Positions 12,681 to 60,465 of a DNA stretch of 64,000 bases are shown here, piece by piece. Each line of letters begins with the position of its first letter. The stretch's first letter is position 1. This DNA comes from a virus. The DNA is taken from the IMG/VR virus record IMGVR_UViG_3300032323_003754, positions 19,214 to 83,213 of that record; one strand, 5' to 3'. Below the pieces are notes generated by a model, which searched no databases, was not told where the DNA came from, and was given only the letters and a program-made list of their open reading frames with translations. Position numbers and translations under genes: made by a program.

Positions 12681-12683
12681 GCG

Positions 12684-13489: not shown

Positions 13490-13502
13490 TATAAGGAAGA
13501 TA

Positions 13503-13874: not shown

Positions 13875-13877
13875 AAA

Positions 13878-23502: not shown

Positions 23503-24183
23503 TTATCTGTCGTTATACTCTGTGTAAATTCCCAATATTTCAGGTACAATAGGGTGTCTGTGATTTTTCTTAAGGTTGATAATCTTTACACCATCTACTC
23601 TAGATGCTACTGTATTTAAGAAATCGAGGCCTGAATCCTTTTTAACCTTTAAATCTATTTGTGAAACGTCACCGCAGATCATAATTTTTGAAGCTACTCC
23701 AAGTCTTCCTAAAACCATTTCCATTTGATTGTTGGTAACGTTTTGTGCTTCGTCTACAATTACACAAGAATTCAAAAATGTTCTACCCCTCATAAAAGGA
23801 AATGGAAGTATTTCTATTACCTGCTCTTCAACCATTTTATCGATCTTTTCCTTTTCGTATAACATATAAAGATTAGAATAGATCGGTGCTAGCCAAGGAT
23901 CCATTTTCTCTTTTAGATCCCCGGGTAAAAATCCAATATCTTCTTTTGCTACTGTTGGTCTGGTAATAATGATTTTTTCAGCCTCTCTATTAAAAAGAAG
24001 ATCTAATGCAATCTGACAAGCTAATAATGTTTTTCCTGATCCAGCCATTCCCCTGATAACAGTTACTGGATTTTCTAGAATTAGTGATTTTGCTTCTTTT
24101 TGTTCATCATTTAGCGTAAGCTTAAACTTGATTGGACCTTTAACTTTCCCCTTTACCTGCGGTTCTTTTGATGTTCTCTCCAT
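23503..24183 (-). CDS. phoH: PhoH-family ATPase
   Basis: GMAGSGKT, IITRP, GFLPGDLKEKMDPW, FMRGRTF, IVDEAQN, GDVSQID, RHPIV; start moved to ATG at 24183 (MERTSK). Confidence 0.95.
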   Translation of the reverse strand: MERTSKEPQVKGKVKGPIKFKLTLNDEQKEAKSLILENPVTVIRGMAGSGKTLLACQIALDLLFNREAEKIIITRPTVAKEDIGFLPGDLKEKMDPWLAPIYSNLYMLYEKEKIDKMVEEQVIEILPFPFMRGRTFLNSCVIVDEAQNVTNNQMEMVLGRLGVASKIMICGDVSQIDLKVKKDSGLDFLNTVASRVDGVKIINLKKNHRHPIVPEILGIYTEYNDR

Positions 24184-24272
24184 AAAATTGTTGGTTTTTT
24201 TAATAGAAACTAATGTATATTTTACTGTATGATCTCTACATGAAGGATTTATTTCTTCATTCAAGCTTATTT

Positions 24273-34000: not shown

Positions 34001-36683
34001 TTCTTTATCATCCTTACAAAATGCTGATCCTTCAGAGGAGGATTATTTTGTTAACTATTTTACTGTTGATGGAAACGACTACTACAATTTAGATCCTGTT
34101 AAATTTAGTGAAATAAAAAGTAAGGCTGCAGATCAGAGATATACATATTTTACATACGATTCTGCATCCGGATTTTCTGAAACTCTATTTAGAGGAGTTA
34201 AAGTTAGGATCAAAGAAAGAACCGATACTTCTTTAAAAACAAAAGAGAGAAACCTATTTAAGTCGGGGGATCAGAAATTTAAGGGTTATAAGTTTTCTTG
34301 TATTCTTAAATCGATAGATGATCCAGATCCTTATTCTGTAACATCACCGGTCACGTTTAATGTTATACAGAATGATACATTCAAAACTGTTACTCTGGTT
34401 ATTACTATCATTAACAACGATCTAAGATTTACTGATTTTGAATCTCTGTCTGATGTATTGTATAATCCTAATTCGGATGCTAATCTTTTATTTAGCAGTG
34501 CTACTGGTTCTTGGTATTATAATCCGACTGGTATTTATGGAGGATCAGATTACTTTGGTTTATACTCCATTAGTAACAAATATAGACATTCGGTTACTGG
34601 TAGTTCTTCTTTATCTGAAAGAGCTAGATTATTAGGGGGAGGAACACTTTCATCTATGATAGGTGATGTTAAATTAAGCTCTGGGTTAAATGTAACCACT
34701 AGAGCAACCATAGGAATATCTTCTTATGTTGGATTTGATAGTTTTAATGGAAGCGGTATAATTCCTATAGTAGTTAATGAAGGATACGACACAGATTTGA
34801 GAGAGGAAGTTAAATTCTTTTCTCCATCAACACCCGTTTCGGGTCCTTCTACTAGACCTTCTTCTTTTAGGGATCAATATACCCTATTCTCTCCTAAACC
34901 TAATGACCCTGGTCAGTACTGGGAGAAAATACCTTGGCCTACCGGTGCTGGTAAAAACTATTTAAATTTTAATGAGGTATCTACGGTATCTTCATATTTG
35001 TTTGATTTTACTAATCTTGGCTATAGCCCGCCATTATTTACCAAAGTCCCTGTTGCTATTTCTTACAGTATGATTCAAAATAAATCTGTATATCAATTTT
35101 CATCCGGTGAAAATTATTGGGAGTATGTTTTTAATAAAATATCATTTCCCGAGATTTATAAACTCTTTTCAGAAGATAATGGTTATATTAATTACACCAG
35201 AACTTATTGGGATTCTTCTAGATCACTAACTGTCACTGAAAGCGATACGTATGTTTTAGAATTCACCAAACCATCATCGTTTATACAGAACTCAAGAAAA
35301 ATCCCTCTGGAGGATAATTTTAAGCCTGAGAAATATTCAAATACACTAGTAGGATATCAGCTTATAAACGAAAACAGTGTTACTGAATTTTTTAGATATG
35401 GCGGGGGATACTCTCCTAAATTCGTTGATGTCCTTCCTTTCTCTAATATAAAAGACGATTATTTAAGTTCGGATAGAAACAATCCTAATTCTTTAGATGT
35501 TATAGTTTCACTTAGAGAAAAAACAAGAGAAGATTCTAAATTTTATGGAGTAGGATCAATCTATGAAATATTGATAGATGGATCGCCTAGGAAAAAATTA
35601 AGACTTGTTAAAGGAAACACCTATAATTTTATTTTTGATAATTTCCGTTCAACGCTTCATAGTGGAGCTTTCCCTATAAAGAAGGATTTTGTAATATCCT
35701 TAGTTGAAAATTCGGGGGATCCCCAGAATTCGTACACTACAAAGTACACATTAGGAACGACAAGTTCAACTTTTACTGTTCCTGAAAATATACCTAACGA
35801 AGTATATTATGAACTAGAGGGGGAAAACTTCTCTGGTGGATCCGCTACCATAGTTGAAAGTTTAGAATATAAAAATACAACATTCGGTATAGAAAAAGAT
35901 TCTTTTGCAACTGTTAAGAATCTAAATTTCTATAAATATGCGAAATCAAATCCGTTCGGTATAGATCCTGAATCTGGATATAAATTACAATATCCACTTA
36001 TAGGAGAAACCCCAATAGACAGAAGAGATCTATTTATTTTTGAAAGTACCTGGGATGCTGGGAGATATCAAGAATATCTTGCCCCTACGACATATCAATA
36101 TCTACCAGGAACGAAGAATATGATAGAACAAAAATCTTTCTTAGGAAGTAAGGCAATGAAAACCCCGAATCTTATAAAAGAACAACTACAGCTTAAATAT
36201 CCTTCTTCGGTTAATGACGTTTTTAACTCAAATTCGGACCTTTATCCTAAGTATGAAATTATATGGGAAGAAACCGATACTGAGATAAAGGCCTTACTAT
36301 TGATCAATAGAACAGCGATAAAGCATTTCCAGAAGGGTGGAATAGACAAGAGATTTTCAGAATTACTTGTTTCTGAGTTTGGTATCGGAAATGATACGAC
36401 CTTAACTGACGATGTGGATGAATACATTAAAAATAACATTCTCCCACAATACGAAGCAAAAGAAATAAGCGTGTATATTAAAAAGATACAAATTACACCA
36501 GGTGTAGATTTACAACCAATAATTACAGATCTTTCTGACTATCAAAAGATCTCTAGTGGATTTTTAAAATCTACCAATAACGATATAACAAAAAAATCAC
36601 CTCTCGAGTATGAATTTAGACTTAGAAAAGATCCTTCTTTTGATTATTCAGTAGCTTTCTCTTTTCTGGTCGGAAAAATATAA
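31026..36683 (+). CDS. Giant hypothetical virion structural protein
   Basis: 1885-aa beta-rich ORF in the structural cluster. Confidence 0.55.
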   Translation: MAEKKDKYKSSFGVVRANPRISGNLKLTVDSGSNIWLNSIDSNDEMSKNEYKGYRISPDGDFSQDVYNFFNKGKTPTNFIFGIKNEEKPQETYTSSLDLQYDGFYHMGVTPLISDVYSEDFSYLAPMWLGTDIPKYFVIFRVDDPIDFSYLVKVTSLEIGKNYKVIENYGVDTTSPQYQQYQIKSDGITYSSGTIFIATSSNFTSLSGNGSVILLDGNYNKQFVGDIQDHFVENILPKSSVVATFSLQGDTKVGKYIRKIQANSNYTQSLIDVKFEQNSLSTYNGVSVKDGVYTKKGEYLNSNFVTDSTVIELDQIVTDGFKRNDIISYNLLNLEFLFTDENADLYTINRYYGFYVDDITTGKFKLSGESFYQNSLTEGNFPEPKSATQISDKMTSSFYQTNENGVKLFVDPSSKWGYVPTSDDVHINDRLKIFYVKDKNHNFHSYKQVKDYQNSATDNDKWGTGTPSEDLIILKNKIIDLSIFSGADKTKTKEYKGTLTKSGGRSYSTIKITDELTPNDAIVLYHPFGENLINSRRYDYFVASDLTYVKPGWGPGSFSDEGGAYYFHPFGTNEEIALSITNVLNSVNYKSYRAFNSGNEIIIRTEGSDRRNDGMFSLFIYKDFYNKSQFTDTGKIYFNDIDGKDLTDVLNFIGGSEYTNTRIKVTNIDASKISVDKSYVRTNFGFSKVKFIGKCIDYDPTEIEFNRIKNYDTHSVIEIENNTHTILVGSNSTIVVEELIDVETGVFSMYGLKDLDVDFWSSNYGKTPTEEYYRYVDVQPDGITPIIQGIDYAVALGSIVEYMGTNYGQGATAGFIFRGGTGTAYKLIQSSNTSRSNVVPAPFVNSITNAASGINDPLVDIDKFPGFLGLQDIKFLNDTSTILTKEDQMYFGKVDSEYDVLKENYIRNLSNVSRVIPYITKWVYQGGIDVRGNDYRLNSSPAFTPLNFSPSFFSPGRDPLYFTNEWYLLENPPILATQKLIADTNNYCTGSISLSSLQNADPSEEDYFVNYFTVDGNDYYNLDPVKFSEIKSKAADQRYTYFTYDSASGFSETLFRGVKVRIKERTDTSLKTKERNLFKSGDQKFKGYKFSCILKSIDDPDPYSVTSPVTFNVIQNDTFKTVTLVITIINNDLRFTDFESLSDVLYNPNSDANLLFSSATGSWYYNPTGIYGGSDYFGLYSISNKYRHSVTGSSSLSERARLLGGGTLSSMIGDVKLSSGLNVTTRATIGISSYVGFDSFNGSGIIPIVVNEGYDTDLREEVKFFSPSTPVSGPSTRPSSFRDQYTLFSPKPNDPGQYWEKIPWPTGAGKNYLNFNEVSTVSSYLFDFTNLGYSPPLFTKVPVAISYSMIQNKSVYQFSSGENYWEYVFNKISFPEIYKLFSEDNGYINYTRTYWDSSRSLTVTESDTYVLEFTKPSSFIQNSRKIPLEDNFKPEKYSNTLVGYQLINENSVTEFFRYGGGYSPKFVDVLPFSNIKDDYLSSDRNNPNSLDVIVSLREKTREDSKFYGVGSIYEILIDGSPRKKLRLVKGNTYNFIFDNFRSTLHSGAFPIKKDFVISLVENSGDPQNSYTTKYTLGTTSSTFTVPENIPNEVYYELEGENFSGGSATIVESLEYKNTTFGIEKDSFATVKNLNFYKYAKSNPFGIDPESGYKLQYPLIGETPIDRRDLFIFESTWDAGRYQEYLAPTTYQYLPGTKNMIEQKSFLGSKAMKTPNLIKEQLQLKYPSSVNDVFNSNSDLYPKYEIIWEETDTEIKALLLINRTAIKHFQKGGIDKRFSELLVSEFGIGNDTTLTDDVDEYIKNNILPQYEAKEISVYIKKIQITPGVDLQPIITDLSDYQKISSGFLKSTNNDITKKSPLEYEFRLRKDPSFDYSVAFSFLVGKI

Positions 36684-36714: not shown

Positions 36715-39700
36715 ATGCCGCAAATAAACATACTAAATATTCTTCCTGGTGATCAACAATCAATACTAGTTGACAAGGTTAATTATAACTTTGACCAGAT
36801 ATTAACAGCTGGTGGAGGACCACAAGGACCGCAAGGTATTAGGGGTGCTACAGGGGCTATAGGACCTCAAGGAATTCAGGGACCTACCGGACCTCAGGGA
36901 TTAAGAGGAGCTAGATGGTACGTACAGCCATCTGCACCAGCTACTGGAAATCTTTTAAATACCCCTTGGGGGGAACCTGAACTTGGAGATTATTGGCTTT
37001 CTGGAACAAGCGATGCTAATCCTCTTGGCGTATATGTTTATGATGAAACCGTCCCAGGAACACTTAATTGGGTATATTCTAATGTTTCTTTTAACAATAC
37101 ATCGGTATTTACTGCTATTGATAATCTGAATAACACAAATGACAGGGCTTTAATTCACGATACGGAGTTTAGTAATAAATATGGACTAGTTCTTAGTGAT
37201 TACGGTGTTGTTGGCGGGGAAACTAATTTCAATTATGATTCTGCATTTGTTAGTAAATTTACAATAAACGCAGAAAGAGCTAAATTAAAAATAGCTACTG
37301 ATCCTGTGCAGGGTGCATCATCTTTGATTTCATTTGGTCGTGCAAATCTGGATAACGCAAACGGAGAAACTGGAGCTTCTTTCAGTCAAGGACACAACCC
37401 AAGATTTCAATGGAAAGTACCAGCCGCAACGAATGCTAATTATGATATTCAATTTTTTAGCCCCGTTGGAAATTTCGAGATACTTGCATCTGCTAGCACG
37501 TTTGGTGTAACTGGAGCAAATATTAGAATGTATGCTTCCTCTAATATAACATTAATAGGAAATACATTTACAATCACTAGAACAGGAGCGGGTAACACAT
37601 ATACCTCTACAGGGACTGGAACTTATGATGTGAGTGGATCTCAAATAAGATTTTCTCCAACATACACAGATACTATAGGTAATTTTATAGTTGGAGACGC
37701 TGTTAATACTGGTGGATCTAAAGGTATAGTTATTTCAACATCTGCAAATACCCCAGGAAGATCCTTAGTATTTAAAAGTCATCAATCTTTAGCTACTGAT
37801 TCTGCTTATGGTAAAATAGCAGCAGAAAAGCAAAACGGAACATCCCCGGTTTCTAGTATAGGGTTTGTAGCAGATGGTACAGGTACAAGAATAGATTTTT
37901 CTGTAAGTAACGGAAGTTCAAACGATTTAAATAGATTAAGACTTGATAAAGATGGTAACCTACAATTTAGAGCGGTTGATTCTTCGATTTATATGCAGGA
38001 CGTTGGTACTGGTGCTGCCGGATTAAATCTTTCTATATCTGCAGGATCAGGTGGAGGCGGTGGTAATCTGATACTAAACGGAGGATCCGTTCCTGGAGGA
38101 TTTACAAGCGGTAAGGTTATTATAAATCCCGGAGCAGTTGCTTCGGGGTCTGGATCTAGTCTTGGTAGTGTTTATTTACATACTACCCAATCCAATAAAA
38201 CAAACGTCAGTGGTGTTTCTATAGGAATAGATTCTAACACATCAGTTGATGCAGCATTAGTAGTTGCAGATACCAACTATAACATACCTGCAGGAGATAT
38301 ATTCGAGCTTAAAACGTATGCACAAAGAGCAATTGCTAGAAACACGGATCTTTCAGTTGATACCTCTCATTTCTTTGGATTTGACGGAGATGGGTATGCA
38401 ACTAAGGGCTTACCGTTCAACCCGACACTTGGATCTGGTGGATATGCATTATCCTCTGATAATTATAATTTGGACTATTATGCAGAAGGGGATTGGAACA
38501 GTAGTTTATCTCTAACTACTATAGGATCAGTTGCTGGCTGGGATTCAAGTAAATATAAAATAGTTAAATCTAGATTCACAAGAATAGGTGATACTGTTCA
38601 AGTGGATTTTGTTATAAAAATTGATTCTCTAACTTCCGGCATTGCTACACCTTCTCCTGCATCTAATGGATTTATGTATATTTCTGGATTTCCTTATTCC
38701 CCAGATTTTAGTAGAGTTAGATTAGGAACTGCAACCAACTTATACACAGCACCTGCTATGCCACTTGTATCGATTAAAGGATCCGGATTTGGTAATTCCA
38801 TTAATACCGGAGGAGGAAATCCAGTAGGGACTATACAAATATATCCTGGTGCTAATATACCTGCAGGATGGCTAACCTGCGACGGGTCTGCTATATCAAG
38901 AACAACGTATGCTGATTTATTTGCGTCAATAGGAACAACCTACGGGAATGGTGACGGTGGAACAACATTTAACCTTCCAGATTTAAGAGGTAAATTTATT
39001 AGAGGTTTAGGTGGAAATTCGTTGGGATTAACAGAAACACAGGCTGATGAGATAAAATCTCACTCTCACGTTCTTAATTACAAAAAAGGAGCATCCGACG
39101 ATAATGAATCAGGAATCTCTGGAGAATATATGAGAAAACTCGGTGCAGGAGGGGGATCCAATTATGGTAATGGAACAACTACCACGGAAACTTCAGGAAG
39201 CGGCATAGAAACCAGACCGGTCAATATGGCAATGAATTACATTATCTATGCCGGATCTACGTCAGGGGCTTCAACACAGACTGAACTTTCTGGTGCATTT
39301 GTTAACGAGAGTAATGGAAGATTTTATATCTATAATGGAAGCGGTAATTTGAACGTTTCTAATGTTCCTGCAGGAACTGGGGTTACCTCATATTTATATG
39401 GTAGTTTTAGTTATTTCACACTAAGTTCTACTACTTACAGTGGAATTGCTACTCCTAGTCCGATGGCACCACCACCTTCTCCAACTCCGACACCAACTCC
39501 GACACCAACACCGACGCCAACACCAACACCGACGCCAACACCGACGCCAACACCGACGCCAACACCGACTCCAACGCCAACACCGACTCCAACGCCAACA
39601 CCGACTCCAACGCCGACTCCAACGCCACAGCTATATTATTATCTTGTAGAAACTTGTGGTGGAGGTGAGCAATTTTATATTAGTACGAGTACCCAAACTG

Positions 39701-39921
39701 ATATAGGTAATGCAGTTAAGGTAAATGGAGTATGCTGTTTGGTAATTTCAACCGATAGTACTGGTACGGCCCTAGTGGATGAAACTAAATATATAGATTG
39801 CTCTGCATGTAATTCAGGGACTCCACCACCATCACCAGCACCAAGCCCAGGTGGCGGAGAAACACCAACGCCATCACCAACACCAGGAGGGCCGGGAGGA
39901 GAAGAAATACCTAATCCTTAA
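36715..39921 (+). CDS. Tail fibre protein with short collagen segment, tail-collar domain, (PT)n linker and Cys-rich C-terminal domain
   Basis: KVNYNFDQI..GPQGPQGIRGATG; PVGTI..PAGWLTCDGSAISRTTYADLFASIGTTYG..FNLPDLRGKFIRG..ETRPVNMAMNYII; PT repeat. Confidence 0.85.
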   Translation: MPQINILNILPGDQQSILVDKVNYNFDQILTAGGGPQGPQGIRGATGAIGPQGIQGPTGPQGLRGARWYVQPSAPATGNLLNTPWGEPELGDYWLSGTSDANPLGVYVYDETVPGTLNWVYSNVSFNNTSVFTAIDNLNNTNDRALIHDTEFSNKYGLVLSDYGVVGGETNFNYDSAFVSKFTINAERAKLKIATDPVQGASSLISFGRANLDNANGETGASFSQGHNPRFQWKVPAATNANYDIQFFSPVGNFEILASASTFGVTGANIRMYASSNITLIGNTFTITRTGAGNTYTSTGTGTYDVSGSQIRFSPTYTDTIGNFIVGDAVNTGGSKGIVISTSANTPGRSLVFKSHQSLATDSAYGKIAAEKQNGTSPVSSIGFVADGTGTRIDFSVSNGSSNDLNRLRLDKDGNLQFRAVDSSIYMQDVGTGAAGLNLSISAGSGGGGGNLILNGGSVPGGFTSGKVIINPGAVASGSGSSLGSVYLHTTQSNKTNVSGVSIGIDSNTSVDAALVVADTNYNIPAGDIFELKTYAQRAIARNTDLSVDTSHFFGFDGDGYATKGLPFNPTLGSGGYALSSDNYNLDYYAEGDWNSSLSLTTIGSVAGWDSSKYKIVKSRFTRIGDTVQVDFVIKIDSLTSGIATPSPASNGFMYISGFPYSPDFSRVRLGTATNLYTAPAMPLVSIKGSGFGNSINTGGGNPVGTIQIYPGANIPAGWLTCDGSAISRTTYADLFASIGTTYGNGDGGTTFNLPDLRGKFIRGLGGNSLGLTETQADEIKSHSHVLNYKKGASDDNESGISGEYMRKLGAGGGSNYGNGTTTTETSGSGIETRPVNMAMNYIIYAGSTSGASTQTELSGAFVNESNGRFYIYNGSGNLNVSNVPAGTGVTSYLYGSFSYFTLSSTTYSGIATPSPMAPPPSPTPTPTPTPTPTPTPTPTPTPTPTPTPTPTPTPTPTPTPTPTPTPTPTPQLYYYLVETCGGGEQFYISTSTQTDIGNAVKVNGVCCLVISTDSTGTALVDETKYIDCSACNSGTPPPSPAPSPGGGETPTPSPTPGGPGGEEIPNP
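39481..39627 (+). repeat. (Pro-Thr)24 coding repeat
   Basis: ccR-acN hexamers with mixed synonymous codons. Confidence 0.95.
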
Positions 39922-39951
39922 TAGAGGCTATTAATTCTAAATTTAATTAAT

Positions 39952-40239
39952 ATGAATAAGCAGGAAACTGAAAAAATAAAATCGATAATAAATAATTATA
40001 AATCGATCCACCAAGAACTTAATTCCTATGAAAAAAGATTAGAAAATATGTCTTTAGGAATTGAGGAGAAACTCGAAGATGAGATCTTCTTAGTTGGGAG
40101 TAAAATTAAAAAGTGTATAAAAAAACTAGAAGACGAAAGAATTCTGGAAAGAAAATTCTATTCATCCCTTGAAAAAAAATATGGGCCGGGTGAATTGGAC
40201 ATAAATACTTTAGAATATAAAAGTAAAAAGACAATATAA
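39952..40239 (+). CDS. Hypothetical coiled-coil protein
   Basis: 95-aa ORF, co-oriented, A/T-rich start context. Confidence 0.6.
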   Translation: MNKQETEKIKSIINNYKSIHQELNSYEKRLENMSLGIEEKLEDEIFLVGSKIKKCIKKLEDERILERKFYSSLEKKYGPGELDINTLEYKSKKTI

Positions 40240-40247
40240 AATTAATC

Positions 40248-41003
40248 ATGAAGGAAGTAAAACAAAAAGTTGAAAAACAGATAGAGGTTGTACAAAAATT
40301 TAAAAATAATAATATAAAGCTTCTTGTAGTAGCAGCTCTTTTTATATTAGCGTTTTTACTATATGGTACATTTAGCAATAACTATCACAAAAAAGAAATC
40401 AAAGCTCTTGAGAATGAGATTAGTGTAGTCCAAAAGAAGTTTGATGCTGCAGTAGAAGAAAAAGAAAAATTAAGAGATTCTTCCGAGACCTACGAGGATT
40501 TGGCCAAGGAGGAAGGGATAAGAGCTGACATTTTTAGAGCAAAAGCTGCAAAGGAGAAAAAAGATAAGGAAGCAGCTTTAGCAGCATTACAAAATTTACC
40601 AAAAGATGTGATTGATACATTTTTTATTAAAAGATACGCAGAAGTTCCTAAATCTGACATTGGTTTAGAATTAGACAAAAACGTAGGTAATGCTATAGTT
40701 GTAGAATTAGTTGAAAAAGATCATTTAGTTGGACAATTAGCAACTTCTGAGAATTTGGCAGTAACCCTTACATCCCAGGTTAATACTTTACAGACCTCTT
40801 TAAATTTTTCTAAATTGGCTCTTGTGAGTGCAGATTCTGCAATCGTAGCTAGATCTAAACAATTTGAATTACAACAGCAGGTAAGTAATCTATTAAAACA
40901 AGATTTAAAAGAAGCTAAGAAAAAAGCCTTTTGGAACAAAATAAAAGGAACTGCAGTAGGTGTAGCAGTTGGTTTAACTGTAGGTCTTATTGCAGTAAAA
41001 TAA
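40248..41003 (+). CDS. Membrane-anchored coiled-coil protein (spanin-like candidate)
   Basis: N-terminal hydrophobic helix LLVVAALFILAFLLYG, long coiled coil, C-terminal GTAVGVAVGLTVGLIA. Confidence 0.5.
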   Translation: MKEVKQKVEKQIEVVQKFKNNNIKLLVVAALFILAFLLYGTFSNNYHKKEIKALENEISVVQKKFDAAVEEKEKLRDSSETYEDLAKEEGIRADIFRAKAAKEKKDKEAALAALQNLPKDVIDTFFIKRYAEVPKSDIGLELDKNVGNAIVVELVEKDHLVGQLATSENLAVTLTSQVNTLQTSLNFSKLALVSADSAIVARSKQFELQQQVSNLLKQDLKEAKKKAFWNKIKGTAVGVAVGLTVGLIAVK

Positions 41004-41088
41004 TTTTTAGCGAATGTCCATAGATAGAAAGCAATCGGTTAAATCCGTGCGGAAATTCGGTATGATATTATTGGATGATAGAAAACTT

Positions 41089-41096
41089 GATATATA
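41089..41096 (+). promoter_or_regulatory. Putative phage late promoter GATATATA
   Basis: Recurrent octamer 7 nt before ATG 41104. Confidence 0.55.
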
Positions 41097-41103
41097 AAAG
41101 AAT

Positions 41104-43440
41104 ATGTCAAGTTTCACCTATACCAGTAAATTCTTTAGTCTAGCTCCTTATTTATTAATGGAGTACAGGTACGGTAGTCAGCCTAATCCTGAATTTCATC
41201 CCGTAAGCTTCGGAGCATCTGCGGTTGGGTTTGAAAAGATAACCAATGGATATTTAAACGGAGCAGTTCAAATCCTTAATAGAGACGAGGATACACAAAC
41301 TACAGGAAACGTAAGGGATAGGAGTTCAGTTCAAATCTCCCAAAACACCTTTGTTAGACTCGATATTGATAGATCTGTCCAGTATTTAGATTATGATGAT
41401 AAATTAACTAATGTATCAAATCTACCGGTAGCATTTGAAAGCAATCTAAACGTTTATTATGATACCGTAAGATATCACTTTTTAAGCGGATTTGATTTTG
41501 GAGCCAGGGACGGAGCTATTCTACAAATTCAATTTTCCGAAAGAAATGGTAAGAAATCTACAGTTTCCCAAATAACATACGAAAAAGGGGATATTGATAT
41601 TACTACACCAAATCCTACCCCTATTTATTTTAATGCTGGTATTTACGATCATTTTATAGAAGTAAAGATCCCATCATATTCACAGATAACTTATGAGTAT
41701 GACACCCAGGTAAATGCTGCTACTGCATCACAAACTACTGCTGCTAAAATAAGCTCTGACGGATCTGGATTTATTAGAAATCAGCCATTTAATGTTACTC
41801 TATTTGAAATAGAATCTACTCAGGATTTAAATGGGTTCTATTATTACCAGACATCCATAAATAGTATAGCTACTATAACTCCTACGGACGAGTATTCTGA
41901 ATTAGCAGCTAACGTAACGGAAAACACAGATTTTGATTACTTCGAATATTATCCTAGCTGGAAAGGTAATTTTATCGAGGATTTCATTTATACTGAAAGT
42001 TCACTTGGAAATATCTATTACATAATACATGACGTAGAGCTGCTTGAGCAGGTTGGATTGAGAAGAATTTCAACACAAAAAATTCAAGTACTTCAGGATA
42101 AGGATTTTAATGCACCATATATTTATAGACCAGTAGTAATGAGCCCAAAGGCAACTAGTTTTTCTATTAATTACTCTATGAGACTAGTTAATAAATTTGA
42201 CAACGTTTCTATACTAAGGGTAGCAACGCTAACAAGCACCGAGGTTGATAAGTATGGACCAGGCATTAAAAAAATCAATCTTTTAAACCAGCCTTATCCA
42301 CAGAAAGTTTATAATAAGGTTGTTGAACCTGTTGTTACCAAAGCATACACACTAAATGTTAATCCAATAGAAAGAGTAATAACTAAATACGTTCCTGCTT
42401 TCTTCGAAAGGGAAAACATAAATATTACGGAAGAGAATCTAACAATAGATAGCCTAGGCGGATTAACACAATCAACTACTTCTGATTCCACTGTCGCTTT
42501 TGGCCAGGGTAAATCCAAAATAGTAGTAAATCCGTATGATAACTATTATAAGTTTAGAATATTTACCAAGAATGATGGAAAAGAAAATACGGTATTAGAT
42601 CTTGGTACTAATTCAGACTTTTATCTAGTTTTTGAAGGAGGAGACAGCAAGACTGTTAGAATTTCAAGTTTATCCGATAGCACCTTCCAAAATCCAAATA
42701 AAGGAGAATTGGTTTTCAGAGTGGTTGAAGCGGATTCTAAAAAAATATCATCCTTTACCGAAAGAAATTTTCACATCGTTTCCAAAACAAATAATGGGAT
42801 AGAAACATCGATCTATCATGGATACTGGATACTTCCTTCGGAGAGAGATCAAAAACCGATTGCCGAACCTGTTGTTACACCAGCTCCAGCACCAACTCCT
42901 GTTGTAATAGCTTCTGTTCAAAACACAACAACACCAGTTGTCGATGTCATTCCACAGCAACCTAAAGATTACTTTGATATAAAAAATGATGCTGTAGTAT
43001 TGAATGTTGAACCTGCTGTAATTAAACAAACACCAGAGGTTCAGCCACCAGTGGTTAAGCCAAGACTTAAAGCAGATCTAGATACCCTTGCTAATCTAAT
43101 TAGCACTGATGAGTCAGCAGGAAAAAGTTTTAGTCAGATTGCAGATTACTATACCGTACCAGGAAATCCTGGAAATCTATTATATGAGGGAATAAGTGTT
43201 ACATTCTTCTTGAATGCAGTTAGGCTGGTACATCCAGATACAGATGGACAAAGAAGCACTCAATTTATCCAATACTCTAATTACCTAGGAGTAATCTATG
43301 AGCCATTTGAAAATCAGAGATATAGCGCAGGAGGCGGAGGTGGAATACCACAGTATTTCAACGATGGAGGATATGGTGTGGATAGAAGGGGATTCAACGA
43401 AAATAATGACTCAGGTCAGGGACAAACTTTTTATTTATAG
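41104..43440 (+). CDS. Hypothetical structural protein with Pro/Thr/Val-rich linker
   Basis: 778-aa ORF; EPVVTPAPAPTPVV linker. Confidence 0.55.
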   Translation: MSSFTYTSKFFSLAPYLLMEYRYGSQPNPEFHPVSFGASAVGFEKITNGYLNGAVQILNRDEDTQTTGNVRDRSSVQISQNTFVRLDIDRSVQYLDYDDKLTNVSNLPVAFESNLNVYYDTVRYHFLSGFDFGARDGAILQIQFSERNGKKSTVSQITYEKGDIDITTPNPTPIYFNAGIYDHFIEVKIPSYSQITYEYDTQVNAATASQTTAAKISSDGSGFIRNQPFNVTLFEIESTQDLNGFYYYQTSINSIATITPTDEYSELAANVTENTDFDYFEYYPSWKGNFIEDFIYTESSLGNIYYIIHDVELLEQVGLRRISTQKIQVLQDKDFNAPYIYRPVVMSPKATSFSINYSMRLVNKFDNVSILRVATLTSTEVDKYGPGIKKINLLNQPYPQKVYNKVVEPVVTKAYTLNVNPIERVITKYVPAFFERENINITEENLTIDSLGGLTQSTTSDSTVAFGQGKSKIVVNPYDNYYKFRIFTKNDGKENTVLDLGTNSDFYLVFEGGDSKTVRISSLSDSTFQNPNKGELVFRVVEADSKKISSFTERNFHIVSKTNNGIETSIYHGYWILPSERDQKPIAEPVVTPAPAPTPVVIASVQNTTTPVVDVIPQQPKDYFDIKNDAVVLNVEPAVIKQTPEVQPPVVKPRLKADLDTLANLISTDESAGKSFSQIADYYTVPGNPGNLLYEGISVTFFLNAVRLVHPDTDGQRSTQFIQYSNYLGVIYEPFENQRYSAGGGGGIPQYFNDGGYGVDRRGFNENNDSGQGQTFYL

Positions 43441-43446
43441 TAGGTT

Positions 43447-43998
43447 ATGTTATTAAACTCTAGGCAGAATGGTTTTATATTTAATTTTCCTAAAGGATTC
43501 TTCTCGGATGCTTTAGAGGAAAAATATCATGGCTATGTTAAGAGGATGCCCATTCCTTATGACACATTAAGGGATTTTATGAATTCCACAATTCAACAGG
43601 TTTCATTTCCAACGTTTCAAAGTATAGATAACGTAGAGCAAATTAGGCCAGGAGGATACAAGCAGAATTATAAAAGCTCAACAAACATACAGAATCTGAT
43701 ACAAAGAAATTTCAGTGTTAGTTTTAAACTCGGTGAGGGATTTATCAATTATTGGATTATGTACGAAAGCATTGTTAATTTCCTGGATTTCAGTAACCCA
43801 GAACAGGTTCTTCCAGATTTAACCCTAAGACTTCTTGATCACGAGGGTATAATAATGTCCACTGTTTCTTTCCAGCAACCTATATACACATCTCTGTCAG
43901 AAGCTCAGTTGAACTACTCCAGCACTACTCCTCAATTCTCAACTTTCAGTGTTGGATTTAGATGTAACTATGTAGATATTAAATTGGAGATAGGATAA
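43447..43998 (+). CDS. Tail tube-fold protein (gp3 tail completion/gp19-like)
   Basis: 183 aa; IQQVSFP..F.V.FKL.E..INYW.MYE..DLTLRLLD..F..P.SLSE..F.V.F pattern of tube-fold proteins. Confidence 0.55.
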   Translation: MLLNSRQNGFIFNFPKGFFSDALEEKYHGYVKRMPIPYDTLRDFMNSTIQQVSFPTFQSIDNVEQIRPGGYKQNYKSSTNIQNLIQRNFSVSFKLGEGFINYWIMYESIVNFLDFSNPEQVLPDLTLRLLDHEGIIMSTVSFQQPIYTSLSEAQLNYSSTTPQFSTFSVGFRCNYVDIKLEIG

Positions 43999-44829
43999 TT
44001 ATCTAAAATACCATTCCCTTATTAGGTTATAGAAATCATTATTAGGAAAATCAGCTATATTATGATTTGGAAATGATGATTTTTTAAATAGTGGATCACA
44101 GGAGTAATGTGCAAAATAGTGATTTTCCCTATTAAACCCATTTACGTTTGGAAAATATGTATTATCTTGACTTATACATTTTATTCTATTATTGTGGCAA
44201 GCAATCTGGAATGCCCACATTTGCATCCACCAACCAAAAGGACTTTCTAGATAATTTCTAGCTATTAAGATGCTTAGATCTATAACTTCTTCGATTATTT
44301 TTTTTAATGTTTTAATCCTTATTATAACAGGAACAAATCCTCCATCCATGTATTCATACTCCTTGTGTTTTAGGTATGGTTCAACAACATAGAAATTTTT
44401 CTTGGACGGATCTTTCATAAACATGTGCCAATCCTCGTACATATTACAGGTCACTACTTCTCCTTCACCTGGTAATATACCATCATATTTTTTAAGGGAA
44501 ATTACGTCGCAGTCTACTATACATAAAAATTCTTCCTCATTAAGATCTGATATTATTTGATTGATTGCAAAAAATAAATTTCCTGCGGAAAAATAAGAAT
44601 GATTATCAGATTCAGAAAGAACCGAATGTATGCCCTTTACTATTTTGTAGGGTATATTTATATTCCAGTCTACCTCTTTAACTATGTTCCCGTGCGAATT
44701 TCTATCCACTATTAACAGGGTAGAATTTAATGCTGATTGTGTACCGTATACTTTTTTTTGCGCATATTGGAATAAACTGCTTTGCCACTGAAATAACTTA
44801 TTAGGGGCTGCAACTGGAACGGTTATCAT
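43999..44829 (-). CDS. GT-A glycosyltransferase resembling plant HPAT/serine-galactosyltransferase (GT95/GT96) enzymes
   Basis: FQWQ near the N-terminus, Y..GN..FA..Q, EEFLCIVDCD (DxD), PVII..TLKKI, FGWWMQMWAF, HY..F.K. Confidence 0.65.
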   Translation of the reverse strand: MITVPVAAPNKLFQWQSSLFQYAQKKVYGTQSALNSTLLIVDRNSHGNIVKEVDWNINIPYKIVKGIHSVLSESDNHSYFSAGNLFFAINQIISDLNEEEFLCIVDCDVISLKKYDGILPGEGEVVTCNMYEDWHMFMKDPSKKNFYVVEPYLKHKEYEYMDGGFVPVIIRIKTLKKIIEEVIDLSILIARNYLESPFGWWMQMWAFQIACHNNRIKCISQDNTYFPNVNGFNRENHYFAHYSCDPLFKKSSFPNHNIADFPNNDFYNLIREWYFR

Positions 44830-44838
44830 GTAAATTTT

Positions 44839-45510
44839 TTAGATATTATTTCTTTCGACCTCATTCTTTAAAAATCTTGCTACCCAGATTGAATCGATTA
44901 TATCTTCAGTTGGTTTCTTTACAGTACCGCTTTTAGTCACCATCATTTCTTTCTTTTCCTTGATTAGGGTTATAAATTCTGAATTAACCTCTGTTTGTGA
45001 GCAAAGAGAATCGTACATGTCTATCTTTTTAAAATTTCCCTTACCTGCAAACTTTTTAATTGCAGTTGGGGAAAATACAAAAAATCTCCCCGAATCATTT
45101 CCAAGTATTTTTAGTATCTCACTTCTTAGTATTCCCGTCAGCATGGAAATATCAATAAGGCTATTTCCGGGCGAACCGAAAGAAATGCCCTCCATTCCTA
45201 TATACACATCGTCATCATCCCCTATAGATTCGATTATAGCATCCTTTATCTCATTAGCTAGAGATACGAAGTTGGATATTTTTTCCCTCTCTCTAATGTG
45301 ATATTCTTTGGATTTATCCAGCTCTTTATTTTTTAGAATCATCTTTAATTCACTGCACTCCCCGAGAAGTGTAAAGTGGTCGTTTCTGCTAAAAATCTTT
45401 TCTATATTATTGTCCGTCTTAAACACTGAGACCAAATTCACTGAATTTTCCCTCAAAATGCATATCCCGGTTGAATTTAAACTCAAATCTATTCCTATAA
45501 TTGTTTTCAT
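44839..45510 (-). CDS. RuvC-like Holliday junction resolvase
   Basis: IIGIDLSLNSTG, IGMEG, SPTAIKKFAGKGN, EDIIDS acidic RNase H-fold motifs. Confidence 0.8.
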   Translation of the reverse strand: MKTIIGIDLSLNSTGICILRENSVNLVSVFKTDNNIEKIFSRNDHFTLLGECSELKMILKNKELDKSKEYHIREREKISNFVSLANEIKDAIIESIGDDDDVYIGMEGISFGSPGNSLIDISMLTGILRSEILKILGNDSGRFFVFSPTAIKKFAGKGNFKKIDMYDSLCSQTEVNSEFITLIKEKKEMMVTKSGTVKKPTEDIIDSIWVARFLKNEVERNNI

Positions 45511-45516: not shown

Positions 45517-45535
45517 TATATACCTTGGATATATA
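45517..45535. promoter_or_regulatory. Back-to-back late-promoter-like motifs (GGTATATA on -, GATATATA on +)
   Basis: tatatacc at 45517-45524 and gatatata at 45528-45535, between the divergent resolvase and gp32 genes. Confidence 0.45.
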
Positions 45536-57366: not shown

Positions 57367-57549
57367 ATGGAAAGCTACGAAAAATTAGTTGCACTCTTAG
57401 AGTCAATGAAAGAAAATGTCGAAAAATTCTTTGTTAAAGGTAATAAATCTGCCGGAACAAGAGTTAGAACTCAAGCTCAGGAAATTAAAAAATTAGCGCA
57501 AGAACTTCGTTTAGATGTCCAAAATGCTAAGAAGACCACAGAGCAATAA
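57367..57549 (+). CDS. Histone H1-like (Hc1-type) small DNA-binding protein
   Basis: EKFFVKGNKSAGTRVR..QEIKKLAQELR is the Hc1-family signature found in Bacteroidota. Confidence 0.8.
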   Translation: MESYEKLVALLESMKENVEKFFVKGNKSAGTRVRTQAQEIKKLAQELRLDVQNAKKTTEQ

Positions 57550-57562
57550 GATAAAAACTTGG

Positions 57563-57588
57563 AAACCAGCCTTAGGGCTGGTTTTTTG
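57563..57588 (+). terminator. Rho-independent terminator
   Basis: aaaccagcc-ttag-ggctggttt plus T tract. Confidence 0.88.
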
Positions 57589-57596
57589 TGATCCCT

Positions 57597-57604
57597 GATA
57601 TATA
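57597..57604 (+). promoter_or_regulatory. Putative phage late promoter GATATATA
   Basis: Octamer right after a terminator, 19 nt before ATG 57624. Confidence 0.55.
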
Positions 57605-57623
57605 CAATCAATAGATATTATCA

Positions 57624-58451
57624 ATGGCAATAAGGGACGTAAAATACAACAGATTCGGTGCATCAGTTCCGGGTGCAACCAATAAAGGAACCCTAGCAAT
57701 AGCAGATGGAACTGATACCGTTGATTACAGTTCAAATGATTGGTATGGCGGGGTAGAAGATGAGGGATATTACGTGATAGCAACAGACACATATTCGATG
57801 GGTTGGGAAATACAAGATAATGCTAAGCCCACTTTTTGGAGATGCAACCAAACAGATGCTGATCTTTTAATCCTTATAAATCAATTGCCAGAAAGAGATA
57901 TTCAAAATGGAGGATCACATTTCAATAATATCACTGATGCATTAAACTGGCTGAATGGTACAAACAAATATGCTTTATTACCTTTAGAAACCGGAGGTCC
58001 AATAGGTTCGTCCGGGCAATGGGTTCTGGAAGTAGGAGCTCATGGATTTCAGCCTGCATTTGAGAATGGTTCAATGACTCTTACTATCTATGATGATGAG
58101 ATAGGATCTAATAATTTTAATGTTATTGCTGGATTGACTGTAAATGATTACGGTCTTTATATAAACGGGAAAGATTCTGCAGGCAACGATCAATCAGCTT
58201 TATTACAAAGTGTAATAGGACATTCGGGAACAATCGAGTTTGTTCAAGGACCTCATAATATAAAACTTGGATTTGGTCCGGGGACTTTTGGTGTCAACAA
58301 CTATGGAGATATAGATGGGATCATGACAGAAGGCAATAATAATCCTCTTCTTTCGATAATTTCAACGTCCAATACTGCATTTACGGGATGGGATGGATCT
58401 GGAATTCCTAACACAAGTCATCTATTAACAATAACAATCACAATAACTTAA
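57624..58451 (+). CDS. Hypothetical protein, possibly virion-associated
   Basis: 275-aa Gly/Asn-rich ORF under the late-type motif. Confidence 0.55.
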   Translation: MAIRDVKYNRFGASVPGATNKGTLAIADGTDTVDYSSNDWYGGVEDEGYYVIATDTYSMGWEIQDNAKPTFWRCNQTDADLLILINQLPERDIQNGGSHFNNITDALNWLNGTNKYALLPLETGGPIGSSGQWVLEVGAHGFQPAFENGSMTLTIYDDEIGSNNFNVIAGLTVNDYGLYINGKDSAGNDQSALLQSVIGHSGTIEFVQGPHNIKLGFGPGTFGVNNYGDIDGIMTEGNNNPLLSIISTSNTAFTGWDGSGIPNTSHLLTITITIT

Positions 58452-58452
58452 T

Positions 58453-58689
58453 ATGAGCCAATATCGAATAAATCTTTATGTTCTAAACAACCAAGGCCAA
58501 GTTGTGGAAGATACTATTTTAAAAATGGATCTACCAAATCAGATAACTGCAAGAACTCTGAAAATGTTACTGAATAATGAAAAATACCCAGATCCTTTGT
58601 CCGAGCATTTAACAGCAGGACCTAAATCTTTTAACGATGGGGATAAAGTAGCTGCTCCTTTTTTGACTTATACAATTAAATTGAAATAG
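58453..58689 (+). CDS. Hypothetical protein
   Basis: 78-aa ORF coupled to the upstream gene. Confidence 0.5.
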   Translation: MSQYRINLYVLNNQGQVVEDTILKMDLPNQITARTLKMLLNNEKYPDPLSEHLTAGPKSFNDGDKVAAPFLTYTIKLK

Positions 58690-58726
58690 AGGAATTGAAA
58701 CAACCGGACAGCTTTTGACTTTAATT

Positions 58727-58734
58727 GATATATA
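58727..58734 (+). promoter_or_regulatory. Putative phage late promoter GATATATA
   Basis: Octamer 12 nt before ATG 58747. Confidence 0.55.
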
Positions 58735-58746
58735 AAACAATAAATT

Positions 58747-58965
58747 ATGGCTTATTATCAATGTAAAGTAACGTTTGATTCCGGGGAAACAAACAAACAA
58801 GGAAAACCAATGATCACTAAAACTGTGATGCTAGTAGAGGCTACTGGTGTAACCGAAGCAGAAGCACGGATCACTGATCATTTAAAATCTGATATTATGG
58901 ATTTTGAGGTGACCTCGGTTTCTTTGTCTAACATCGAATCGGTGTTGCAAGAAAAAACTAAGTAA
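58747..58965 (+). CDS. DUF4494-like protein
   Basis: YQCKV..LVEATGVTEAEARI..FEVTSV..SNI resembles the Bacteroidota DUF4494 N-terminal half. Confidence 0.7.
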   Translation: MAYYQCKVTFDSGETNKQGKPMITKTVMLVEATGVTEAEARITDHLKSDIMDFEVTSVSLSNIESVLQEKTK

Positions 58966-58966
58966 A

Positions 58967-59167
58967 ATGAAAAACCAAAAATCTCCTGTAGAAGATCAAA
59001 TCAAAGAAGGCGGCAAAGCAGATATCTCTAATTATGAGGTTCCTGATAGCCCAGTTAAAATCCCGGACAACGATACCGGATTTGAAATGGTTAAGAAAAA
59101 CTACAGGAGATTTATTTGGACAATGGACGAACACTCCAAGAAAAGAGTCTCTGGAAAGGATAAATAG
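58967..59167 (+). CDS. Hypothetical protein
   Basis: 66-aa co-oriented ORF. Confidence 0.5.
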   Translation: MKNQKSPVEDQIKEGGKADISNYEVPDSPVKIPDNDTGFEMVKKNYRRFIWTMDEHSKKRVSGKDK

Positions 59168-59188
59168 TATTAAATATAAAATACTATT

Positions 59189-59533
59189 ATGCCAGCAGTA
59201 ACTCGGACACAGCAAAGACTATTTGGTCAAGCTTATGGCGTTAAGAAATTTCGCAGTACTAAAGGTAAGGAAGGACTTAATCCTAAAGATATCAATCCCA
59301 AGTATAAAGATGAAATCCTTAAATTAGCTGATTCTATGTCCATGGCAGAGCTTGAAAAGTATGCAAGTACTAAACACAAGAAATTGCCAGAAAGAGTTAA
59401 AGAAGGAGCTATAAAGGATATCTATTTCCATTTAAGTCCAGATGCTCAATACGATCCTTCTAAGGAAAAAGAGAGAAGGCTTGGAAATCTAGCTGATTAC
59501 AGAGAGTACATAAAAAAGAATAAAAGTAAATAA
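59189..59533 (+). CDS. DUF3008-like small basic protein
   Basis: MPAV..QQRLFG.A..MS..ELEKYASTKHKKLPERV. Confidence 0.6.
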   Translation: MPAVTRTQQRLFGQAYGVKKFRSTKGKEGLNPKDINPKYKDEILKLADSMSMAELEKYASTKHKKLPERVKEGAIKDIYFHLSPDAQYDPSKEKERRLGNLADYREYIKKNKSK

Positions 59534-59534
59534 T

Positions 59535-59984
59535 ATGGGAACTGAACAAATCAACGAGGAATGCGGTTGTGGTGCATCGACACCAGTAAGCGTTCCAGTA
59601 AGAGAAATAGATCCCTCCGTAGGAAAAATGGCTTCTTTGGCTGATGGAAGAAATGGAAAGATTAACGATTCGATCAGGAATTCAAGAGGAGAGGTTATTG
59701 GATACGTTATGAATAACGAAAAAGGAACGTTTAGAGTTTTCAAAGATAAGGTTACTAATATTTACGAGAGCGAAGGAGGAATGGCTTCTCTTGAAGGTAC
59801 ACCAGGTATGGGAGAGGTACAACCCCCTACTAGAACCTCTGATGGATCTGGAGATGTCTTTCCTACACTAACTGCAGGAACAGGATCGGCAAAGAAAGGA
59901 AAAAAGAAATCCAATAAGCCTTTACCTAAATCTGTTTTAGATTGGGAAACATTCAGGAAAAATATGCTTAAAAATCAATCATAA
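59535..59984 (+). CDS. Hypothetical protein with SH3/KOW-like segment
   Basis: VGKMASLADGRNGKI..GYVM..GTFRVFKDKV followed by a low-complexity tail. Confidence 0.55.
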   Translation: MGTEQINEECGCGASTPVSVPVREIDPSVGKMASLADGRNGKINDSIRNSRGEVIGYVMNNEKGTFRVFKDKVTNIYESEGGMASLEGTPGMGEVQPPTRTSDGSGDVFPTLTAGTGSAKKGKKKSNKPLPKSVLDWETFRKNMLKNQS

Positions 59985-60021
59985 GGTGACAAAATTTCTA
60001 AATTAATCAACTAACATATGT

Positions 60022-60057
60022 AAAAATGTCTTAATATCAATTAAGGCATTTTTTTTG
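60022..60057 (+). terminator. Probable Rho-independent terminator
   Basis: aaaatgtcttaat-atca-attaaggcatttt (one G-U pair) plus T tract. Confidence 0.6.
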
Positions 60058-60087
60058 TAATTTATTAGTTAATATAATTTATAAACT

Positions 60088-60447: not shown

Positions 60448-60453
60448 ATCCTT

Positions 60454-60461
60454 TATATTTG
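60454..60461 (+). promoter_or_regulatory. Bacteroidota sigma70 -7 element TAnnTTTG
   Basis: Exact TATATTTG 4 nt before the GTG start at 60466. Confidence 0.45.
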
Positions 60462-60465
60462 GTGT

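Follow-up and report, generated by a model that had tools for sequence, protein, structure and literature searches.

Introduction

Hydroxyproline O-arabinosyltransferases (HPATs) of plants and green algae (HPAT1-3, RDN/NOD3/PLENTY; glycosyltransferase (GT) family 95) act after prolyl 4-hydroxylases (P4Hs) on extensins and peptide hormones, and are termed 'plant-specific' in one abstract (PMC4738400). Here, we describe a homologous enzyme encoded by a 64,000-nucleotide stretch of phage DNA (hereafter, the window) that spans positions 19,214 to 83,213 of IMG/VR record IMGVR_UViG_3300032323_003754. The whole record is 83,213 b long and amounts, by CheckV, to ~30% of the genome, a coverage that applies to every absence from the record reported below. 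Working from the letters of the window alone, the original prediction had proposed that the phage may use this enzyme to glycosylate its own virion fibres.

43999-44829, minus strand: HPAT-family GT-A glycosyltransferase of 276 amino acids (aa), soluble; Pfam PF23452; phage clade

The phage enzyme shares with the plant HPATs a homologous catalytic domain with the same order of motifs, and its candidate acceptors are, like theirs, Pro-rich and extensin-like. It differs from them in being soluble and devoid of an anchor, the plant enzymes being described as Golgi type II membrane proteins (PMC8012813), and in that no supply of UDP-arabinofuranose was seen. The plant peptidyl-serine alpha-galactosyltransferase SGT1/SERGT1 (GT96) is said to be related to GT95 (PMC8012813). 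Its acceptor is a Ser next to hydroxyproline runs in extensins rather than hydroxyproline. The soluble, cytoplasmic logic of a hydroxylase followed by a glycosyltransferase is also that of the Skp1 system of Dictyostelium and Toxoplasma, which, unlike the system considered here, modifies a single proline of a single protein. In that pathway, the prolyl hydroxylase PhyA is followed by Gnt1 and, later, by GT-A enzymes such as AgtA.

Virion glycosylation by phages is already known from mycobacteriophages, whose own glycosyltransferases decorate and shield C-terminal stretches of virion proteins (PMC12619734). The targets there are the capsid and tail tube, whereas the candidate target here is a fibre. 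The mycobacteriophage O-glycosylation of Freeman et al. (2023) reportedly involves no hydroxylase and relies on different enzyme families. Virus-encoded P4H and glycosylation are likewise known from chloroviruses: PBCV-1, unlike the present phage a eukaryotic virus, encodes its own P4H (vCPH), cytoplasmic glycosyltransferases (A64R) and GDP-fucose enzymes, and a GDP-mannose dehydratase and a fucose-synthase-like gene are also present in the record analysed here. PBCV-1 capsid glycans are N-linked, and we know of no HPAT-type enzyme in this virus. Finally, the DNA glycosyltransferases of phages (T4 alpha/beta-GT, RB69/DLP3, JGT-like) often lie near replication genes, as does the gene described here, but they are GT-B or JGT/TarP-like GT-A proteins that pair with ThyS or TET-like genes, whereas the family of the window enzyme pairs with P4H. 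A search of the literature brought up no description of phages with an HPAT-like enzyme or with a pairing of P4H and transferase.

Homology of the phage transferase to plant HPATs

The 276-aa product of the open reading frame (ORF) at 43999-44829 had been likened to GT95 and GT96 enzymes on account of six motifs in a set order. All six were found in that order, with WQ at residues 15-16, Y....N..FA..Q at 79-91, EE.....DxD at 99-108, PVII....LKKI at 167-178, FGW...M.AF at 198-207 and HY.....F.K at 241-250; the DxD is formed by D106 and D108, and the C-terminal motif reads HYS.D..F.K. With the Pfam HPAT profile PF23452, the protein scored 46.5 bits, well over the cut-off of 23.9 (E 4.2e-12). The match pairs residues 8-250 with positions 7-249 of a profile 307 positions long, and the profile also recovered the transferase in a six-frame search of the record. 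Homologues formed 47 clusters of ~276 aa in a set of 5.8 billion proteins, 35 of them carrying a precomputed PF23452 label; an identical protein is encoded on a contig of 116,562 b. Profile searching of a library of 1.84 billion proteins returned 89 representatives at E <= 1e-3, and the phage profile picked up a Brassica HPAT-like domain protein among the same 1.84 billion (E 4.8e-6). Starting from this Brassica protein, 15 plant sequences named HPAT3, RDN2, NOD3 or PLENTY were collected and compared with the phage alignment by hhalign. The two aligned over 217 columns (94.7% probability, E 6e-8), phage residues 7-247 facing plant residues 77-306 with their motifs superposed, ~24% identity in the aligned columns and a plant E-P-D opposite the phage DxD. 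Thus, the likeness to HPATs goes far beyond what chance would produce and is one of real, if distant, homology; within the superfamily of the plant enzymes, the transferase belongs to a branch of phage and bacterial members. None of the 52 proteins listed in a search for longer plant HPAT relatives was named SGT1.

Neither PHROGs nor NCBIfam holds a family for the transferase, whose neighbours in the ESM Atlas are mostly viral. Querying 50,697 GenBank phage records by tblastn with the transferase and a marine family member gave no match, so that this collection offers no cultured or deposited phage usable as a model.

The AlphaFold2 model of the protein (predicted local distance difference test score 95, predicted template modelling score 0.92) displays a GT-A fold in which the acidic metal-binding motif follows the fourth strand. 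The phage protein begins at the first strand of the fold, and the N-terminal Golgi anchor of GT95 enzymes in the strict sense is absent from it, the alignment starting at plant residue 77. Retaining GT6 enzymes occupied the top Foldseek ranks, namely BoGT6a (E 1e-6), alpha-3-GalT and the ABO transferases; since the nearest solved folds all belong to retaining enzymes, the transferase is probably retaining as well. No solved structure matched significantly by sequence when the PDB was queried with the protein or its profile, the best match (jagged-1, E 0.27) being taken as chance. The protein is acidic, with an isoelectric point (pI) of 6.0 close to the family median of 5.98, and has no membrane anchor, hydrophobic segment or signal peptide (maximum Kyte-Doolittle 19-residue mean of 1.09). 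Twenty-four residues are invariant in an alignment of 26 members, including D106, D108, Y131/W134/H135, G163/G164, W200/W201 and H241-Y-S-x-D245...F248.K250, and all 24 are intact in the window protein.

Association of the enzyme family with P4H and Pro-rich tail proteins

A scan of IMG/VR yielded 76 loci, or 77 with the window, and the 1004 proteins from their called ORFs were clustered; ORFs were called with our own scripts from ATG starts only, at a minimum length of 50 or 60 aa. A cluster of two-domain oxygenases of ~393 aa was found in 69 of the 77 loci, no more than three genes away from the transferase in 67 of them and adjacent to it in 38. When transferases were grouped at 60% identity, the oxygenase lay within three genes in 11 of 15 groups. 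The N-terminal half of the oxygenase is a P4H (Pfam 2OG-FeII_Oxy_3, E 9.5e-16), and all nine of its sequence matches in the PDB were P4Hs (Bacillus anthracis, E 4e-23; human C-P4H alpha-2; Chlamydomonas; PBCV-1). A TET-like identity of this partner was ruled out on structure. In loci L008-L010, L022, L023, L059 and L068, the oxygenase is split into adjacent genes (~184 + ~167 aa); fused or split, the two modules stay together. Eight loci, namely the window, L064, L067, L069, L070, L072, L075 and L076, hold no P4H in the fetched stretch, three of them ending within one gene of the transferase. Searching four transferase-bearing records over their whole length revealed a P4H in three, including both complete ones. 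Among deposited phages, P4H genes of this cluster (cl1-like) are rare (12 of 50,697 records).

Proteins with Pro-rich segments accounted for 82 of the 419 genes lying within three genes of the transferase compared to 23 of the 508 genes located farther off in the same loci; their genome-wide share in G005, a relative of the phage described below, was 6 of 272. Of the 105 such proteins in the loci, 95 fall into a single cluster of tail proteins that end in a domain of the crAss muzzle C-terminal type (E 1.8e-20) and carry long PT/PS/PV/PA linkers. This cluster is represented in 54 loci, frequently by more than one copy around the enzymes, and in most related loci the transferase gene lies embedded among Pro-rich tail proteins. 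The co-occurrence of the transferase with prolyl hydroxylases and Pro-rich fibres that had been put forward as a check was, therefore, borne out for the enzyme family; within the window's own lineage it failed.

Further neighbours of the transferase include PF11397 'GlcNAc' transferases, a dTDP-glucose-dehydratase-like enzyme, GT2 and methyltransferase genes. PF11397, which we take to be the family of the Skp1 hydroxyproline GlcNAc-transferase (Gnt1), adjoins the transferase in 13 loci (cluster 11), a likeness to the Skp1 system in which the window and its record, both devoid of a PF11397 match, do not share. Four of ten representative proteins scanned combine PF11397 and the HPAT-like domain in one chain, in some cases together with an FkbM methyltransferase. 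Another fusion joins the HPAT-like domain to a cupin-8/JmjC hydroxylase. Its location on long contigs of chromosomal origin from metagenome-assembled genomes (MAGs) of Pseudohongiellaceae and further Gammaproteobacteria shows that a hydroxylase-transferase fusion exists in bacterial chromosomes. In L082-L086 (MAG contigs of up to 1.28 Mb), the HPAT-like domain is N-terminal in a protein of ~650 aa, judged to be this cupin-8/JmjC fusion by its library twin P0054.

Position of the window enzyme within a P4H-linked clade

To place the window protein within its family, a maximum-likelihood tree was built from 70 of the 86 cluster ORFs (230-330 aa), the remaining 16 being fragments, fused forms and over-long calls that were dropped. 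The window protein fell inside a 31-row clade (support 100/98 and 100/99), and each of the other 30 rows has a P4H no more than three genes from its transferase. Its nearest relatives in the tree are 62-70% identical to it, with P4H-linked enzymes reaching 70%. Nested as the window transferase is in a P4H-linked clade, its separation from P4H is the derived state.

Syntenic relatives and candidate acceptors

Four IMG/VR records share with the window a protein of 1885 aa (68% identity) that has no kin in four transferase-bearing records. One of the four, G005 (244,850 b, 86% complete), is collinear with the record over ~74 kb at 48-94% protein identity. The transferase was found in none of the four relatives by profile search. 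In G005, Pfam HPAT and six-frame hidden Markov model (HMM) searches gave no transferase match either, and tblastn of G005 and of the fetched stretches of the other three returned a single chance match of 24 aa (E 1.9). G005 nonetheless encodes, at 35969-36523, a P4H of 184 aa that the HMM of the transferase-associated cluster recognizes (E 7e-55). It shares 50% identity with the P4H beside the L009 transferase and is situated in a part of the genome that the window's record does not cover.

Three proteins of the window come into consideration as acceptors:

36715-39921, plus strand: tail-collar fibre of 1068 aa, candidate acceptor; Pfam Collar E 5e-24, phrog_523 E 5.8e-35
41104-43440, plus strand: 778-aa protein with a Pro-rich linker (motif at aa 592), second and weaker candidate acceptor
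62925->63998, plus strand: collagen-like protein with much Thr/Ser and little Pro, cut off by the window end; Pfam Collagen E 3e-49

The descriptions of all three in the original prediction were confirmed. The fibre consists of a short collagen-like N-terminus, a Collar domain (705-762), a (PT)24 array, a Cys-rich knob and a terminal tail. Its extensin-like part holds exactly (PT)24 at residues 923-970 (nt 39481-39624), with PSPMAPPPS ahead of it and PPPSPAPSP...TPTPSPTP at the end. The tandem repeat in the underlying DNA (nt 39481-39627) displays an identity of only 85%, and the repeat is thus kept at the protein level more than in the DNA and is not a fresh product of slippage. Only the first 276 aa of the fibre are common to it and its counterparts in the relatives (64-66% identity). 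ORF 41104 bears TPAPAPTP at residue 592, found no match in Pfam and PHROG searches, and has orthologues in the relatives (71-75% identity) with longer Pro/Ala/Thr linkers. The collagen-like product of ORF 62925 follows a Gly-X-Y pattern over residues 44-358, to the window end, and contains 21.8% Thr, 13.4% Ser and 2.8% Pro; given this composition, it could act as an acceptor of Ser/Thr-type glycans and is not plausible as a prolyl-hydroxylase substrate.

The fibre module of the relatives includes an extra protein with two (PAPT)n arrays (L096:4604-5944 in G005, L097:4744-5820, L098:4647-5876), preceded by an ORF of 210-214 aa without family match. In the G005 copy, the C-terminal region gives weak matches, below cut-off, to PT-HINT (E 3e-4) and Intein_splicing (E 4e-4). 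Elsewhere in G005 (57,499-60,401 and 62,515-68,930; L093-L095, L102), two small P4H-type oxygenases lie by a tryptophan-halogenase-like flavoenzyme (E 7e-97), and the vicinity also encodes a radical SAM/SPASM protein as well as an epimerase that carries a fused 2-oxoglutarate oxygenase domain. A divergent thymidylate-synthase-like ORF at 103,166-104,787 of the same genome (L104:3166-4787; PF00303, 21.3 bits against a cut-off of 24.3) resembles CMP 5-hydroxymethylase 5b6d (E 4e-4) and adjoins an NT5C deoxypyrimidine nucleotidase; this could hint at pyrimidine modification in the lineage.

Linkage of the transferase to a RuvC-like gene

44839-45510, minus strand: RuvC-like Holliday-junction resolvase of 223 aa; phrog_159 E 1e-13

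The transferase had been described as following the resolvase gene. Indeed, it starts 9 nt past the RuvC-like gene, and by virtue of this short gap the two are probably co-transcribed. At the same place, G005, G006 and G007 harbor a RuvC gene of 183 aa on the plus strand, 40-43% identical to that of the window, amid flanking genes that are 85-90% identical between the window and these three relatives; the window region 43999-45510 corresponds to L096:10121-10672 in G005. With a divergent RuvC on the opposite strand between such similar flanks, the RuvC and transferase genes look like an exchanged, inverted two-gene cassette.

The accompanying claim of a late-promoter-like motif at the resolvase gene did not survive inspection. 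The RuvC strand shows no more than a TATAAAGA-like core immediately ahead of the ATG; exact TATAAATA occurs 15 times in the window compared to 13.3 times in shuffles and is, therefore, not over-represented; and the copy of GATATATA in the spacer (45528-45535) is on the plus strand, facing the SSB gene and pointing away from RuvC. Promoter and terminator scans around the transferase revealed nothing above shuffles. GATATATA itself is present eight times in the window, always on the plus strand (24273, 36688, 41089, 45528, 49873, 57597, 58727 and 62895), and six of these copies precede an ORF start by 15-30 nt, including those of the fibre, ORF 41104 and the collagen gene. It may represent a promoter or leader motif of the phage; its count is not above that of shuffles (8 versus 6.4).

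A glycan cassette in the same record

Record positions 6,941-15,419 (L078), upstream of the transferase by ~48 kb, in the part of the record that precedes the window: ten-gene glycan cassette

The genes of this cassette include weakly Nucleotid_trans-like, GT10-like, DUF5672, GT17, Methyltransf_24, GT2 and FkbM methyltransferase genes, in addition to a GDP-mannose 4,6-dehydratase gene (497 bits, above the cut-off of 415) and a GDP-fucose-synthase-like gene (413.7 bits, below the cut-off of 500). G005 has the same cassette, the centre of which (GT17, GT2, FkbM) is swapped for a Glyco_trans_1_2 gene, another epimerase and unassigned ORFs. As far as gene content can tell, the sugar genes near the transferase point to 6-deoxyhexoses, and the sugar transferred need not be arabinose.

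Interpretation and alternative explanations

On balance, we lean towards the view that the transferase starts O-glycans on hydroxyproline, or on Ser/Thr, of the Pro-rich tails of the fibre in the host cytoplasm. In such a pathway, a soluble P4H would hydroxylate prolines within the X-Pro (PT, PS, PA, PV) linkers of newly made tail proteins in the cytoplasm of the host, whereupon the HPAT-like GT-A enzyme, with a divalent metal at its DxD and a nucleotide sugar, would add the first sugar to the hydroxyl, and further glycosyltransferases would lengthen the glycan. In the present phage, the acceptor would be the (PT)24/PPPSPAPSP tail of the fibre, perhaps along with the linker of ORF 41104, and extension could be provided by the GT10/GT17/GT2/methyltransferase/GDP-fucose cassette ~48 kb upstream. 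Possible benefits would be stiffening, protease resistance, shielding and adhesion. Where the earlier proposal of own-fibre glycosylation is concerned, HPAT homology, the family-wide co-occurrence with P4H and Pro-rich proteins and the presence of a glycan cassette in the record speak for it, while the lack of a P4H in the record and the retention of (PAPT)n fibres by relatives devoid of the transferase do not.

These last two observations belong to a set that weighs against glycosylation of the fibre. No P4H-type or cupin-8 gene was detected in the 83,213-b record with our own cluster HMM and PF13640; since the record represents only ~30% of the genome, this does not establish the absence of a P4H from the whole phage, and one may be encoded in the unsequenced 70%. 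Three of the transferase-less syntenic relatives have longer (PAPT)n fibre tails plus the extra (PAPT)n protein, which makes the Pro-rich fibres of the lineage independent of the transferase; co-variation of the two within the lineage was accordingly rejected. The transferase is, in addition, located outside the fibre module proper, 4 kb past the fibre gene, on the opposite strand and behind RuvC, at the border of the replication genes. Many of the loci from which the family-wide figures were drawn are near-copies of one another, and a Pro-rich protein lies within three genes in only 7 of 15 groups at 60% identity; Pro-rich linkers concentrate in tail modules anyway, and their enrichment may in part be a mere matter of location. 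Finally, a UDP-arabinopyranose mutase (RGP-type, PF03214) was not found in three transferase-bearing records or in G005.

Direct glycosylation of Ser/Thr in the manner of SGT1, on the (PT)24 array or on the Thr/Ser-rich collagen and without proline hydroxylation, would account for the lack of a P4H in the record. Threonine is every second residue of the 48-aa PT array, a Pro-poor and Thr/Ser-rich collagen gene is available within the window, and GT95 is said to be related to GT96/SGT1 (PMC8012813). We nevertheless deem this unlikely given that all 30 rows that share a 31-row clade with the window enzyme are P4H-linked, that the enzyme is up to 70% identical to such P4H-linked enzymes, and that a syntenic relative, G005, is endowed with the matching type of P4H. 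A target outside the virion, be it a host envelope glycan, a host protein or a later step of the glycan made by the upstream cassette, is improbable to a greater degree, as is the role in takeover or in the exclusion of other phages that a host-directed enzyme would have. The gene is here detached from P4H and from the fibre module, came in with a mobile RuvC cassette, and is one that relatives manage without, as such a target would allow; the linkage of the family to P4H and Pro-rich tail proteins, its fusions to protein hydroxylase-type domains and the lack of a signal peptide or membrane segment argue the other way.

The proximity of the transferase to RuvC, SSB, primase-like and UvsY-like genes raises the question of DNA hypermodification, in which the enzyme would glycosylate a hydroxymethylated or hydroxylated pyrimidine as in T-even and other phages. 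Two further findings go in the same direction: the stretch at 62322-62801 resembles dUTPase_2 weakly, with a score short of the cut-off (E 1.8e-4), and G005 has the sub-threshold thymidylate-synthase/CMP-hydroxymethylase-like ORF beside its deoxypyrimidine nucleotidase. DNA-glycosylating GT-A enzymes do exist in phages (bioRxiv 10.1101/2023.12.21.572611). Those enzymes are, however, described as base-J-glucosyltransferase/TarP-like and linked to 5mYOX or ThyS (bioRxiv 10.1101/2023.12.21.572611), whereas the partner oxygenase of the present family is a P4H and not TET-like. Linkage to a pyrimidine hydroxymethylase (ThyS-like) or to a TET/JBP-like dioxygenase was not observed, the record has no thymidylate-synthase-like gene, G005 has such a gene yet lacks the transferase, and the protein is acidic like the rest of its family. 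All this renders a role on DNA very improbable. An RB69/DLP3-type DNA arabinosyltransferase was ruled out, those enzymes being GT-B. The least probable explanation, in our view, is that of a passenger gene recently arrived with the RuvC cassette and devoid of an adapted role. Its absence from three syntenic relatives and the inversion of RuvC, only 40% identical to that of the relatives, are as expected of a passenger, but the reading frame is intact with every family-invariant residue kept, homologues of 73-92% identity are present on other contigs, and the gene is tightly packed between the 9-nt gap to RuvC and abutting stop codons.

Fibre glycosylation by the window enzyme could be one instance of something broader. 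Tentatively, and aware that this generalization may well prove wrong, we suggest that tailed phages and some bacteria might own a complete plant-like pathway of hydroxyproline O-glycosylation, which phages would employ within the bacterial cytoplasm to turn the Pro-rich linkers of fibres into stiff, protease-resistant, extensin-like rods; the transferase would pass from one phage lineage to another, unrelated one in a small cassette. Such a pathway would combine, with the same reserve, a P4H of the collagen/plant type with an HPAT-like transferase for initiation and further glycosyltransferases for extension. Were this so, GT95/GT96 could no longer be called specific to plants, and viruses or bacteria would have had a part in their history; plant-like glycoprotein rods on phage fibres would bear on stability, adsorption and recognition in water; the soluble, confidently folded 276-aa phage homologue, linked to a P4H and to natural Pro-rich substrates, would be a convenient protein from which to derive a first structure and a mechanism for the superfamily; and the hydroxylase and transferase would provide a compact toolkit for producing hydroxyproline-glycosylated peptides in bacteria. 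What the window adds is a detached, RuvC-linked transferase, suggesting a gene able to travel without P4H in a two-gene cassette, together with a negative co-variation among close relatives that offers a natural comparison pair.

Source phage and further features of the record

The large structural proteins of the window distantly resemble those of Tenacibaculum phage PTm1, Lak megaphages and an uncultured 462-kb phage. Together with the size of the syntenic relative G005, this resemblance indicates that the source is, to judge by its proteins, a jumbo-type tailed phage from water. The remaining landmarks around the transferase are as follows:

13878-15602: baseplate wedge gene
Between the baseplate wedge gene and the tail-collar fibre: very large proteins of 2548, 1185 and 1885 aa
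39952-41003, plus strand: two small ORFs of 95 aa and 251 aa between the fibre and ORF 41104, kept in the relatives
43447-43998, plus strand: conserved ORF of 183 aa with no assigned function, 87-88% identity in the relatives

Genes run from the baseplate wedge gene through the large proteins, the tail-collar fibre, the two small ORFs and the 778-aa protein to the 183-aa protein, after which come the minus-strand transferase and RuvC genes and then, back on the plus strand, gp32-like SSB, primase-like, UvsY-like and further replication genes. The 183-aa ORF, for which Pfam and PHROG searches gave no match, meets the transferase tail to tail with abutting stop codons. The 251-aa small ORF is a coiled-coil with hydrophobic ends, and the pair yielded only weak matches, to an Rz-like spanin (phrog_739, E 0.0034) and DivIC (E 0.0013).

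Other observations concern more distant parts of the record. A PhoH-like gene (23503-24264, minus strand; phrog_170, E 3.9e-66) is the lone minus-strand gene amid the plus-strand structural block. At 60088-60855, a small Hsp20 protein (E 9e-11) and a short HhH-GPD base-excision-type ORF (E 9e-9) are followed by a DNA polymerase fragment. The beginning of the record (878-3778; L078) is taken up by an asparagine-synthase-like gene (E 3.5e-40) that stands head to tail with a RimK-type ATP-grasp ligase that has a Zn_protease-like end (E 1.5e-36).

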